A stretch of DNA of 64,000 nt from a virus. Its lineage: Duplodnaviria; Heunggongvirae; Uroviricota; Caudoviricetes. Positions 40,231 to 55,594 of the stretch are shown here, piece by piece; position 1 is the stretch's first letter; each line of letters begins with the position of its first letter. Made by a program: the position numbers and the translations under genes. The stretch lies in IMG/VR virus record IMGVR_UViG_2565956713_000001, one strand, 5' to 3'. The notes under the pieces are model-generated. The model saw only the letters and a program-made list of their open reading frames with translations. It ran no database searches and was not told where the DNA came from.

Positions 40231-40872
40231 ATGGATAAGAAAATATGCGTTGTTTCGATGAGCGTCGGCAAACCGGCGTCAATGACTGCTGCATGGATCA
40301 ATAACGAGCTGATAATGGCTGAGCGGACCAGCTACCCTGAACGCCGCCGCGATATGGAACTCCAGCTGCTGCGCGAATTGCGAGAAAAAGAGGAAAAGGG
40401 TTTTATCGTGCTGGTGGAAGAGGAAAACAGCTTTATTACTGGTCGAGTTGGCCAGCGTGTAAGGTTGCGCGATCCCTTCATGAACGGCAGGCCGGTACTG
40501 ATTGAAGCAATGCAGATTTACAAGGAGCTGGAACGCCAGAAAGCAATCAAGTTACCGCGCAAGGAATCCGGCAAATACATTCTCCACCAAAGCATCTTCG
40601 ATTCCGAACACGATAAAAAAGGCGATGAATTTTTCAACATCAACTGGAGCGAAATAACGACAGAGCATGTTCTGACGTTACTATGTTGCTTTGCGACGGA
40701 ATACAACAACGTTGCCAGCGCCGACTACATCAGGGCAATGGCTGGAGAAGTTGAGGCCCGCCAAGAACCATCGTTACTAAGTCCACTGATTAACATAATT
40801 CTGGGCACCCAGATACTGGAACAAAAAAAAGTGCCGAAAGGGGTATTAACAGGCAAGCATAATTATTTTTAA
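40231..40872 (+). CDS. mat: Hypothetical protein at the P1 mat position
   Basis: 213-aa ORF from ATG at 40231 (track ORF starts further upstream); assignment by synteny after ref. Confidence 0.45.
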   Translation: MDKKICVVSMSVGKPASMTAAWINNELIMAERTSYPERRRDMELQLLRELREKEEKGFIVLVEEENSFITGRVGQRVRLRDPFMNGRPVLIEAMQIYKELERQKAIKLPRKESGKYILHQSIFDSEHDKKGDEFFNINWSEITTEHVLTLLCCFATEYNNVASADYIRAMAGEVEARQEPSLLSPLINIILGTQILEQKKVPKGVLTGKHNYF

Positions 40873-40965
40873 CAATTACATACAGTAATTTTGTGGTTAC
40901 ATTCTCCATTGATTTTCTAACCGCTTTATCATTAGATGTAACAGCATGTAAATCATTTAAAATGG

Positions 40966-42102
40966 ATGAAAGCAATGGGGAATGAAGTTTATCAAAGTCA
41001 AAAATGCAAGTTGAAATATTCAAAATCTCAAATTGATAGGGCTGCTCAATTGATAAGGCACGGGTGTAGTGACGAAGAAAGGCAGCAATCTATTGAAATG
41101 ATACAAAATTTCCGTGAGCTGCATCTTTATCCATTAATGCTCATGAAAAATCATTTAGCAAGAGCAGCTGCTAAGGTTGACAAGGACAAAAAGATTCTCG
41201 TTGCAAGAAGACTTAAGCGACTTTCTACCATAATAGATAAACTAGAGCGTCCTAGTCTTGATGGAGGCAGAACTAGCAATGCAATTAAATTAACACGGAT
41301 GCAGGACGTTGGCGGATGTAGGGCCATTGTCAGAAACTTAGACCAGTTGATACAGCTAAAGGAACGTCTTTTAAAAAGCAAATCTGTTCATAGGATTGTT
41401 AAAGAGTATGATTATCTTACTCCCAAAGACAGCGGCTATAGTGGAATCCACCTTGCATACAGTTGCTTCGATCAGAAAGAGGATCAATATCCGTGGCGAA
41501 AAACAAAGATTGAGATACAGTTAAGAACTCAATTGCAGCATGCTTGGGCTACTAGCCTTGAAATAATTGATACCCTTGAAGGTATCAAGCTGAAAACTTC
41601 AAGTGAAGGGCATCCAGAATGGAGACGATTTTTCTATCTAGCCGGATGTCTTGTAGCGCACGACGAAAAAGCCTGCACTCTTGATGAGCTAGTTGTATCT
41701 CAGTATGAAGGCGAGCTTAAAGAGCTGGAACGGACTTTATCTGTACGGAGGAAACTAAGCACATACACCATCGCCTTAAATTTAACTTCTGACGCGAATT
41801 TGATTAAGAAGTTGCCAAAAAATCATAAGGGGCATTACTTAGTAACAATGAGAAATGCAGAAAACAAGCCCAATACAAAAAACAAAAAAATGTTCCTAGT
41901 GTCTGTTCGCGCATTTAAAACAAAAGAAGCAGATGAAGCCCTTGAGGCCTTAAATAAAGACGATTCTAATCCTAATGTATTGATATCTGTTCTCGTTGCT
42001 ACAGATAACATTAAGTCACTAAAAAAAGCCTACCCCAACTATTTTGGCTCAACAAACCAGTTTACAAAATTCTTAGATAAGCATCTTCGTAACGAAGGAT
42101 AG
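40966..42102 (+). CDS. capRel: Fused toxin-antitoxin small alarmone synthetase (toxSAS, CapRel-type): RelA/SpoT nucleotidyltransferase domain plus Cys-free C-terminal pseudo-zinc-finger domain
   Basis: RelA/SpoT synthetase motifs TRMQDVGGCRAIV, GYSGIHLAY, EIQLRTQLQHAWA; about 110-aa C-terminal extension without cysteines; visibly AT-rich relative to flanks. Confidence 0.8.
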   Translation: MKAMGNEVYQSQKCKLKYSKSQIDRAAQLIRHGCSDEERQQSIEMIQNFRELHLYPLMLMKNHLARAAAKVDKDKKILVARRLKRLSTIIDKLERPSLDGGRTSNAIKLTRMQDVGGCRAIVRNLDQLIQLKERLLKSKSVHRIVKEYDYLTPKDSGYSGIHLAYSCFDQKEDQYPWRKTKIEIQLRTQLQHAWATSLEIIDTLEGIKLKTSSEGHPEWRRFFYLAGCLVAHDEKACTLDELVVSQYEGELKELERTLSVRRKLSTYTIALNLTSDANLIKKLPKNHKGHYLVTMRNAENKPNTKNKKMFLVSVRAFKTKEADEALEALNKDDSNPNVLISVLVATDNIKSLKKAYPNYFGSTNQFTKFLDKHLRNEG

Positions 42103-42110
42103 TTGCTTAA

Positions 42111-42135
42111 TTTTGCCCGGTAATTCCGGGCAAAA
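42111..42135. repeat. Perfect 10-bp inverted repeat (TTTTGCCCGG-TAATT-CCGGGCAAAA) at the capRel/lxc junction
   Basis: Palindrome between convergent genes; U-run precedes rather than follows the stem, so not a canonical intrinsic terminator. Confidence 0.6.
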
Positions 42136-42138
42136 TTG

Positions 42139-42387
42139 TCAATCTGCATTCAGGAGCAATGCGTTATCTATGATGATCTGCTCCCATTCTTCGAATGCCC
42201 GATCGCGGACGCCCTGGGGAACACTGTTAGTTTTGAAATCGACCACCGTCCGCCATTTCCCGTCCGGGCGGTACATGCGCAGAGCTTTACTTCCCCCTTC
42301 CCTGCGCACCTCAACGTTATGCTTATCAGCAAACTCTTGTAATGCTCGTAGCGTCCCATGCTTTACTGTGTAGTATCGCTTTTTCAA
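42139..42387 (-). CDS. lxc: Lxc/Bof-like C1 co-repressor (ImmT)
   Basis: 82-aa basic ORF downstream of ulx and darB on the minus strand, matching P1 gene order and recalled Bof size. Confidence 0.55.
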   Translation of the reverse strand: MKKRYYTVKHGTLRALQEFADKHNVEVRREGGSKALRMYRPDGKWRTVVDFKTNSVPQGVRDRAFEEWEQIIIDNALLLNAD

Positions 42388-42824
42388 GTTTTCTCTCCAG
42401 CCTGTGCCAAGGCTTCAACTTCCAAATCGTAAGACTCAAACTCATAGTCCTGGTCGTCAACTTCTTCAGGCACTGGCAGTAAATGCCAGGCTGAGTATAT
42501 CTGACCATTATCAAAACGCTCCTGGCTGTAGAGCGTCGCGGCTATGAGTGTTAGCGCCGGGCGGTCATAACGGTAAATTTTGCGAACGTCACGGTCAACG
42601 AGACGACCGAAATTACCATAACCGCGCTCCAGTAATAATTTTTTAATTTCCGGCCAGTATGGACCATAGCTGCGGTACAGGCGGGGATTTTTCAGTAATC
42701 GCCCGCGTAGCCCTGACAGGAAGAAATCAACGTATTCGTCTTCTGTCTTTCCTAACAACGCTGTACGGAGTACCGCCTCAAGATATGTTTTATTCGGTTT
42801 TATTGTATCAGATAGTGTGGCCAT
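42384..42824 (-). CDS. ulx: Ulx-position protein (hypothetical)
   Basis: 146-aa ORF between darB and lxc, overlapping the lxc start. Confidence 0.45.
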   Translation of the reverse strand: MATLSDTIKPNKTYLEAVLRTALLGKTEDEYVDFFLSGLRGRLLKNPRLYRSYGPYWPEIKKLLLERGYGNFGRLVDRDVRKIYRYDRPALTLIAATLYSQERFDNGQIYSAWHLLPVPEEVDDQDYEFESYDLEVEALAQAGEKT

Positions 42825-53930: not shown

Positions 53931-54127
53931 ATGTGTAAAAAACGACTGAAAGAAAAGCGGTGGTCCAGACGCCGACAAAAGCACGAACTCGCAAACAAAC
54001 GCCAAAGTTGGCAATGGCACACGCTTTTCACGAAAAGAACACCCCGAGATATTGCGTTCGCTGGTGGGAAAACATTCCTGACCCACCTGAAGGCGCAATA
54101 CATCAGGTTTTAAGCAGAGGAAAGACT

Positions 54128-54805
54128 ATGAATAACATGACAACGAAAGAGCTTTTGACGGCACTTCCAAAATACAAAAGCCATAAAACAGTTCGCGCCT
54201 CAAAAATCAAAGATATCGAAATTATCGCCCTAATGGATGTGGTCCTTTTTTGCAACATCGAAGTCGTTGAGCCAGAAGGGGTAAAAGTCCATGTTGATAA
54301 AATATTTTTGCAAAAACACCGACCAGAAATTGGCGGATATCTGGTCGCTTATGAGGACGGATCTCTGTCCTATTCACCAGAAAAAACATTTGAAGAAGGC
54401 TTTAGTCGGACTAACGACTTCTTCGAAAATGGGGTATCGCTCAGCATTGAAGGTCACAATGGGGTGACATTCATTACAGCCAGGGACGTAACTATTTCTG
54501 CTGGCGGTATCGCTACTCTACAAGAAGAAATCGACCTTGAAGCAGCCGACTTTTCTGACGCGCTGATGTGGCTGAAGGATGGCAAGAAAGTTGCTCGACG
54601 CGGGTGGAACGGCGAAAACCAATTCTGCTGGCTGGTTCCTGAAGGACAGTACCCGGCACGAATGGAAGCCATTAAGGGATATTTCCCCGGCGACCTCGTT
54701 CCGTATGGTGCTTATTTCGCCTTAAAAAATGCACAAGGTGTAGTTGTTCCGTGGGTTCCTTCTGTAGGCGACTTACTGGCATGTGACTGGTTTGTAGTGG
54801 AGTGA
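54128..54805 (+). CDS. Hypothetical protein with conserved C-terminal W..PS..DLLA.DW motif
   Basis: ATG at 54128 with GAGGAAAG RBS (track ORF starts upstream at 53960). Confidence 0.45.
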   Translation: MNNMTTKELLTALPKYKSHKTVRASKIKDIEIIALMDVVLFCNIEVVEPEGVKVHVDKIFLQKHRPEIGGYLVAYEDGSLSYSPEKTFEEGFSRTNDFFENGVSLSIEGHNGVTFITARDVTISAGGIATLQEEIDLEAADFSDALMWLKDGKKVARRGWNGENQFCWLVPEGQYPARMEAIKGYFPGDLVPYGAYFALKNAQGVVVPWVPSVGDLLACDWFVVE

Positions 54806-54811
54806 TTTAAC

Positions 54812-55594
54812 GTGGAAAATACTAAAGCAATTCAATACCGCCTGCGTAATGGCCAGAGTGTCGAAGTGACCATCAATAATGATGGAGTACCTGGCGAAAA
54901 GGTTTCTATCTCTGATCTGGCTATCGAAAAAACCATCATGTGCCACCTTGGCTTTACTGAAGAAGTGAGCAAAAAGCATGGTGTAGCAATCTGGAGCGCA
55001 ATGGATACTGGTATGCGCAAATTCATTACTGCTCGTACCCCAGGGATGACCATGATGGACCTCATGCAGATTGCGCCGCTGTTTGAATGTGAGCCTTTAG
55101 ATGTATTCAGCAATCCAGCTATCTGCCAGCAGTTATATGGTGAGATGAAACTCGCGGTTACCCCCATTGTGCTGCATGAAGGATCGCTTACTGGCGTGTG
55201 GAAAGTGGAGCGTATTTCAAGCTACATGCCTTTCCATGTCAACGGCGTAATCACTGGTGAAAATCAACCTGTTTCCGTTATAAAGTCAGACCTCAAGCGC
55301 GCAATTCTTGAAGCAAGTTGTCGAGTTGTCGGCCTGGGCAAACAGTCTTATGTTTCCTTCCCGGCTGGCCCTGAAGGCCAGGCAGAAATTCTGATTATGG
55401 ATGCCGATCTGCTATGGCAAATACAGTTTCTGATTGGCAAAAGCATCATCCGCGCTGAAGAACTCGATCAGTACATTACCTGCACGATGACGGATGAAGT
55501 CAAAAGTGTAGCTATAGCCAATGCCCGGAACCTATGTCGTGCTGCATTAACAGAATTGCAAGAAAACACCACGGAAGAAGTGGAAAGCGATTAA
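54812..55594 (+). CDS. Hypothetical protein
   Basis: 260-aa ORF (GTG start) followed by a bidirectional terminator. Confidence 0.4.
   Translation: MENTKAIQYRLRNGQSVEVTINNDGVPGEKVSISDLAIEKTIMCHLGFTEEVSKKHGVAIWSAMDTGMRKFITARTPGMTMMDLMQIAPLFECEPLDVFSNPAICQQLYGEMKLAVTPIVLHEGSLTGVWKVERISSYMPFHVNGVITGENQPVSVIKSDLKRAILEASCRVVGLGKQSYVSFPAGPEGQAEILIMDADLLWQIQFLIGKSIIRAEELDQYITCTMTDEVKSVAIANARNLCRAALTELQENTTEEVESD

Follow-up and report, generated by a model that had tools for sequence, protein, structure and literature searches.

A close described relative of the gene analysed here is CapRel of the Salmonella phage SJ46 (PDB 7ZTB, 9ERV), a fused protein whose toxin pyrophosphorylates tRNA (PMC9712102) and which is triggered either by a phage major capsid protein or by the Bas11 protein Gp54 (Zhang et al. 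2022, 2024, 2026; PMC9712102, PMC11578894, PMC13423816). Residues 1-272 of this prototype make up the toxic construct, and swapping residues 270-339 alters phage specificity (Zhang et al., PMC9712102). A second allele of the same fused family, CapRel-Ebc of Enterobacter chengduensis, is 70% identical to the SJ46 protein (PMC9712102), and its sensor domain can recognise non-capsid triggers, even a complex of a phage protein with host FtsZ (PMC13423816). CapRel has been reported to rank with the most frequent defence systems in P1-like phage-plasmids of E. coli (bioRxiv 10.1101/2025.09.12.675607). The interval between mat and lxc in these elements was named RD-1 and described as a low-GC hotspot in which res/mod gets replaced (Venturini et al. 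2019, PMC6906374), and its variable synteny, bounded by the same two genes, was also shown by Lai & Cooper (2024, PMC10865808). The latter study described an RD-1 gene, relAP1, in the P1-like element of E. coli M114.

Here we compare with these systems a locus in a 64,000-nucleotide stretch of DNA from a Caudoviricetes virus (hereafter the window). The gene between mat and lxc very probably encodes a CapRel-family fused toxin-antitoxin with a putative role in defence, an allele 74% identical to CapRel-SJ46 that forms a single-gene cassette in the mat-lxc slot (RD-1) of a P1-like phage-plasmid. The family, its prototype in the same slot, the hotspot and the exact gene are all already known. By its sequence, the window gene is identical to relAP1 of Lai & Cooper (mBio 2024, PMC10865808): plasmid p1gmyPossum of E. 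coli M114 encodes the identical protein WP_000526244.1 between mat and lxc, with 100% identical cassette DNA and the same flanks, so that the two differ in interpretation alone. The cassette of pTZ20_1P is likewise 100% identical to that of the window, and its gene is the one listed in RD-1 as a 'putative phosphokinase' (PMC6906374). The initial annotation rightly took the family to be published, but this particular protein, too, has been described, in the relAP1 and RD-1 reports. What remains of value is that the CapRel and relAP1 literatures have not yet been joined: the word CapRel is absent from the paper of Lai & Cooper (PMC10865808), and we found no paper naming both relAP1 and CapRel in the literature searched.

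The longest ORF between mat and lxc in the ORF list of the window spans positions 40966..42102 on the plus strand and comprises 378 codons, as had been annotated, but RefSeq and the crystallised SJ46 protein begin at the second in-frame ATG at 40975, which yields 375 aa plus stop (40975..42102, WP_000526244.1); the sequence is compatible with either start. With 38.7% GC, the gene is AT-rich next to the 5 kb to its left (46%) and right (52%). It lies on the opposite strand, as originally described, relative to lxc, ulx, darB and the res/mod genes of P1, but on the same strand as mat. The cassette measures 1.27 kb and holds this single gene; other ORFs in the list are short and overlap capRel, and SJ46 is laid out likewise. 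The N-terminal toxSYNTH (toxin) region (40975..41781, plus strand, residues 1-269) contains R79, R116, the G-loop tyrosine Y155 (41437-41439) and the catalytic strand KTK-I-EIQLRT with I179 (41509-41511). The C-terminal antitoxin/sensor region (41782..42099, plus strand, residues 270-375) consists of anchors and a cysteine-free pseudo-zinc-finger domain, and includes the YXXY motif Y353-P-N-Y356 (42031-42042). The RelA/SpoT motifs reported initially (DVGGCR, GYSGIH and EIQLRTQLQHAWA) were all located in the protein, and the claimed absence of cysteines from the C-terminal domain extends over the last 141 residues.

Profile and structure searches bear out the assignment to the CapRel type. Similarity to RelA/SpoT synthetases is far above chance (Pfam RelA_SpoT, PF04607, 3e-12, aa 82-196 of the 378-aa form), PDC-S33, a candidate family of PADLOC, matches the whole protein length (6.7e-86), and a PDB search returned an end-to-end alignment to CapRel-SJ46 (7ZTB, 9ERV) with an E value of 5e-185. 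Global pairwise alignment gave 73.7% identity over the whole length, with 77% for SJ46 residues 1-272, 64% for residues 273-373 and 63% for residues 270-339. Of 18 experimentally probed SJ46 residues that we checked, 17 are the same in the window protein (A77, R79, R116, Y155, L270, N275, L276, K278, L280, L307, K316, V338, L339, A341, A351, Y352 and Y355, SJ46 numbering), the exception being R314, which is replaced by lysine. The features thereby kept are the ATP-stacking arginines, the G-loop tyrosine, the YXXY autoinhibition motif and the interface residues. Across 40 homologues, K178, E180, Q182, R184 and T185 are invariant, and mean column entropy is 0.97 in the N-terminal region, 2.14 in residues 270-340 and 0.47 in the YXXY block; a conserved toxin joined to a hypervariable sensor is a pattern already published for the CapRel family. 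Among PDB entries, an AlphaFold2 model (pLDDT 83.3) most resembles 9ERV and 7ZTB (E about 1e-39, TM 0.68-0.75), with an rmsd of 9-10 Å to the crystal structures over the full length. A RelA/SpoT synthetase domain and a C-terminal antitoxin region with YXXY thus lie on one polypeptide, and the locus has no separate antitoxin gene; every sequence-testable feature of fused CapRel proteins is present.

The reading offered by Lai & Cooper is that RelAP1 is an unregulated small alarmone synthetase, raising basal (p)ppGpp and sensitising the cell to mild stress. It draws on the RelA/SpoT synthetase domain and agrees with weak similarity to RelP, RelQ and YjbM, and the authors, who recognised no regulatory domain, proposed raised basal ppGpp (PMC10865808). 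However, the similarity to housekeeping enzymes is confined to the domain level. After CapRel-SJ46, the next PDB matches are RelP and RelQ at 2e-8 and cover the catalytic core only, and the YjbM model NF053588 of NCBIfam, with its cutoff at 320 bits, gives a score of 35.5, below what defines a housekeeping synthetase. RelP, RelQ and YjbM are single-domain proteins of about 200 aa, whereas the window protein has an additional 100-aa C-terminal domain, which is homologous to the antitoxin/sensor of CapRel-SJ46 and carries the YXXY motif; the SJ46 toxin, moreover, modifies tRNA (PMC9712102). An unregulated synthetase would also be expected to be costly by itself, but relAP1 alone imposed no fitness cost at attTn7 in REL606 (PMC10865808). 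We therefore consider an unregulated synthetase improbable.

The published genetics fit better with an auto-inhibited protein. The gene relAP1 was necessary and sufficient for a fitness cost of ~10% of blaTEM-116*(Q274R); CTX-M-15 and SHV-12 were not costly in M114. Lines that lost the P1 element or acquired the substitution I179S compensated the cost, which a null relAP1 allele also abolished (PMC10865808). Since relAP1 is costless alone, costly together with one specific protein, and relieved of its cost by a mutation in the catalytic strand, these results match an auto-inhibited, trigger-dependent toxin. By homology to the prototype, for which Zhang et al. describe a closed state, a specific protein would bind the C-terminal sensor and keep the enzyme open, and the open toxin would pyrophosphorylate tRNA 3' ends, halting translation and aborting the infection. 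For the window allele, we infer tRNA pyrophosphorylation, an anti-phage role and the bla cost as partial toxin activation from this analogy.

A CapRel identity suggests, tentatively and at somewhat less than an even chance, that the antagonism between relAP1 and blaTEM-116*(Q274R) is a form of innate-immune 'autoimmunity', in which the beta-lactamase, or a cell state it causes, partly triggers the CapRel sensor. The beta-lactamase, or the state it creates, would bind or perturb the C-terminal sensor of the window allele; this perturbation would partly open the toxin, and low-level tRNA pyrophosphorylation would then account for the growth cost of about 10%. Given the sensing of a phage-protein/FtsZ complex by CapRel-Ebc, indirect triggering is one possible route to this cost. 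If so, a non-phage protein would trigger a capsid-type sensor, and the defence cargo of phage-plasmids would directly shape which resistance genes a strain can carry cheaply. The relAP1 experiments were read without the CapRel identity, that is, without the prediction of an auto-inhibited, trigger-activated tRNA toxin, and the relAP1-bla pair lends itself readily to testing the specificity of CapRel sensors.

The two P1-like CapRel alleles share family, length and two-domain fused architecture, as well as catalytic, autoinhibition and hinge residues. Being a P1-like phage-plasmid too, SJ46 has its CapRel gene in the same slot and orientation (mat and capRel in one direction, lxc and then ulx and darB convergent to them), preceded by a homologous AT-rich region. 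Nevertheless, 26% of the residues differ between the two proteins, and 36% do so in the C-terminal sensor, the determinant of phage specificity, where R314 is replaced. Because of this divergence of the sensor region, the SJ46 triggers are not transferable to the window allele, and no phage data for the latter were found in the literature searched. At the nucleotide level, the cassettes are about 70% identical, whereas the flanks reach 95-100%. Between the two alleles pN is 0.17, and synonymous sites are saturated (pS 0.85; range 0.80-0.98), which precluded a dN/dS ratio and, with it, a test of whether the sensor is under positive selection. The saturated synonymous sites, the low pN and the near-identical flanks together indicate two old, selectively maintained alleles that have been exchanged into near-identical backbones, which is what cassette exchange via flanking homology would give.

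On both sides of the gene, the expected P1 backbone was found in P1 order, with cre, c8, ref and mat to the left and lxc, ulx and darB to the right. The stop codon of mat occupies 40870-40872 and that of lxc, on the minus strand, 42139-42141. Homology to reference P1 stops at 40817 and resumes at 42141 in a match to the lxc gene of P7; the exchanged segment therefore takes in the last ~18 codons of mat (40818..40872, plus strand, the last 18 codons plus stop, past the final base homologous to reference P1). The window matches SJ46 at 95-100% identity as far as about 40770, where identity drops to about 80%; values of 50-85% follow across the 3' end of mat, the junction and capRel, and 98-100% is regained at the lxc stop. 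The C-terminal 36-aa tail of Mat (40762-40872) differs between cargo classes across the loci compared (L001-L087) and is almost class-specific. The window tail is nearly identical to that of one class with GNAT cargo, and the tail associated with the SJ46 allele resembles those at empty sites. These class-specific tails indicate that the left recombination junction lies inside mat and that the Mat C-terminus moves with the cassette. The replacement begins inside mat and not at its stop codon, where the initially proposed 93-bp junction starts.

The AT-rich upstream junction (40873..40974, plus strand), of which the first 93 bp have 29% GC, is homologous but diverged in SJ46 and presumably provides capRel with a promoter and ribosome-binding site of its own. 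A simple promoter and terminator scan of 40700-42450 found no sigma-70 consensus in the 93-bp junction; its sole sigma-70 match, at 40790-40817, lies within mat. A relAP1 clone with just 134 bp of upstream sequence was active at attTn7 in REL606 (PMC10865808). On the right, between the capRel and lxc stop codons, a perfect inverted repeat (AATTTTGCCCGG-TAATT-CCGGGCAAAATT, 42109..42137) has arms of 12 nt (42109-42120 and 42126-42137), not the 10 bp first reported, around a 5-nt loop, and is separated from the lxc stop by a single base. The scan found no T-run after the stem on either strand, so that the repeat does not qualify as a canonical intrinsic terminator. In every slot variant, the empty one among them, a separate short GC-rich hairpin adjoins the lxc stop (for example, at ~1975-2010 in L003 and ~4600-4625 in L001, and also in L004 and L005), and the window stem (GCCCGG/CCGGGCAAAA) is similar to that at the empty RCS47 site. 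The lxc gene (42139..42387, minus strand) is the right conserved anchor of the hotspot and remains alignable and conserved to within a few bases of its stop in all aligned variants.

Reference P1 (NC_005856) does not carry capRel at this position but has the EcoP1I res/mod genes between mat and lxc. Thus, a type III R-M system of 5.2 kb (6.4 kb with IS5) on the other strand stands where the window has a 1.3-kb single gene predicted to be an abortive-infection module. The initial annotation had described the replaced block as res/mod/IS1, of which res/mod is correct; the insertion sequence in the slot of NC_005856 is an IS5 within mod, and the IS1 of P1 marks the other hotspot, RD-2 (PMC6906374). 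To survey the slot, 80 P1-like IMG/VR contigs were fetched via Lxc, the mat-lxc interval was measured, and the cargo was typed by Pfam and PADLOC; locus counts pool the IMG/VR contigs, reference phage loci and the window. Among the 80 contigs and reference phages, the slot was either empty or held one of about 11 kinds of cargo, which fall into 14 sequence classes, in keeping with the exchangeable defence cassette site proposed earlier. Nine loci are empty and have a 39-bp spacer with a hairpin. The remaining loci encode a SIR2_2/PDC-S25 protein (n = 12), a DUF2971/PDC-S31 protein (n = 10), GNAT acetyltransferases of two classes (n = 9), type III R-M (n = 9), a PIN_12 protein (n = 7), the SJ46 CapRel allele (n = 7, including SJ46), the window CapRel allele (n = 3, plus the window), EAL plus an AraC-type regulator (n = 5), an antirepressor + HTH + JukA block (n = 4), a YaaC plus deoxyribosyltransferase-like pair (n = 3), or a 132-aa lipoprotein-like ORF (n = 2). 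Several of these cargoes are known or candidate defence genes (type III R-M, SIR2-like, JukA and PDC-S31-type). The window gene has the properties of RD-1 cargo: it lies between mat and lxc, its GC content is below that of the backbone, and related elements have other genes in its place.

A few of the other cargoes merit mention in their own right. The SIR2-like cargo is the commonest in the IMG/VR sample and has 338 aa in 11 loci (L009, L014 etc.) and 435 aa in one (L016); the shorter form may be truncated or a separate allele. In three loci (L029, L043 and L076), a cargo of 1.8 kb comprises a YaaC-like gene (Pfam 5.9e-46) followed by a nucleoside 2-deoxyribosyltransferase-like gene that is below the Pfam cutoff. 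PADLOC matched neither, and located as they are in a defence hotspot, they possibly represent an uncharacterised defence pair. The record OP279344.1 (L006, 'P1 isolate del res del mod') has a slot occupied by an EAL-domain gene and a regulator of the AraC type; this cargo, at first sight an engineered marker, clusters with the natural EAL+AraC cargo of IMG/VR contigs and is also found in phage Ro157c2YLVW.

As a toxin-antitoxin gene on a low-copy plasmid prophage, capRel could also be thought of mainly as a plasmid-addiction module that stabilises the P1 prophage by post-segregational killing rather than as a phage defence gene. Yet with toxin and antitoxin on one polypeptide, the toxin cannot be released in the classical manner, by unequal decay of the two once the plasmid is lost, and the element already has phd/doc. 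Loss of P1 is also evidently tolerated, since six of nine evolved M114 lines lost the whole element (PMC10865808), and the other cargo of the slot is largely of the defence type. An addiction role is thus very improbable, even more so than an unregulated synthetase, and we retain the reading as a putative defence cassette.

Of the CapRel alleles in complete E. coli genomes, that of the window is the most frequent: its protein, WP_000526244.1, is found at 99-100% identity in 83 of 5426 such genomes, about six times as many as the studied SJ46 allele (14 of 5426). Plasmids account for 83 of its 87 places in these genomes, and the chromosomal matches are IS-truncated remnants. The cassette is also found at at least 99% identity in 52 PLSDB plasmids and in phage vB_EcoM-673R5; a megablast search of phages returned only one record with the window allele, SJ46 being found just by tblastn or with a longer query. 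Literature searches for WP_000526244 and for PDC-S33 gave no matches. Among the remnants, the chromosome of E. coli AHM9C68I (L088, 4986-5450) retains the last ~450 bp of the window allele together with lxc and ulx, truncated by ISKpn26 and lying amid IS26, IS3 and IS1, and a few plasmid copies are 5'-truncated (e.g. NZ_AP025216.1). Although such IS-truncated copies in a few records might suggest a decaying or inactive passenger, the window gene is almost certainly not one, as its ORF is intact with all catalytic and autoinhibition residues, non-synonymous divergence is low and synonymous sites are saturated, 83 genomes hold 99-100% identical copies, and the genetic phenotype needs the wild-type allele (PMC10865808), so that the relAP1 genetics refute this view in practice.

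The window also has cargo at the RD-2 position, where P1 carries its IS1. Between ssb and the ddrB-side genes (53960-55594), we found two ORFs: one, of 260 aa, had no match in a Pfam search, and the other, of 281 aa, has a C-terminal Tad2-like anti-Thoeris domain (Pfam PF11195, 2.4e-22).
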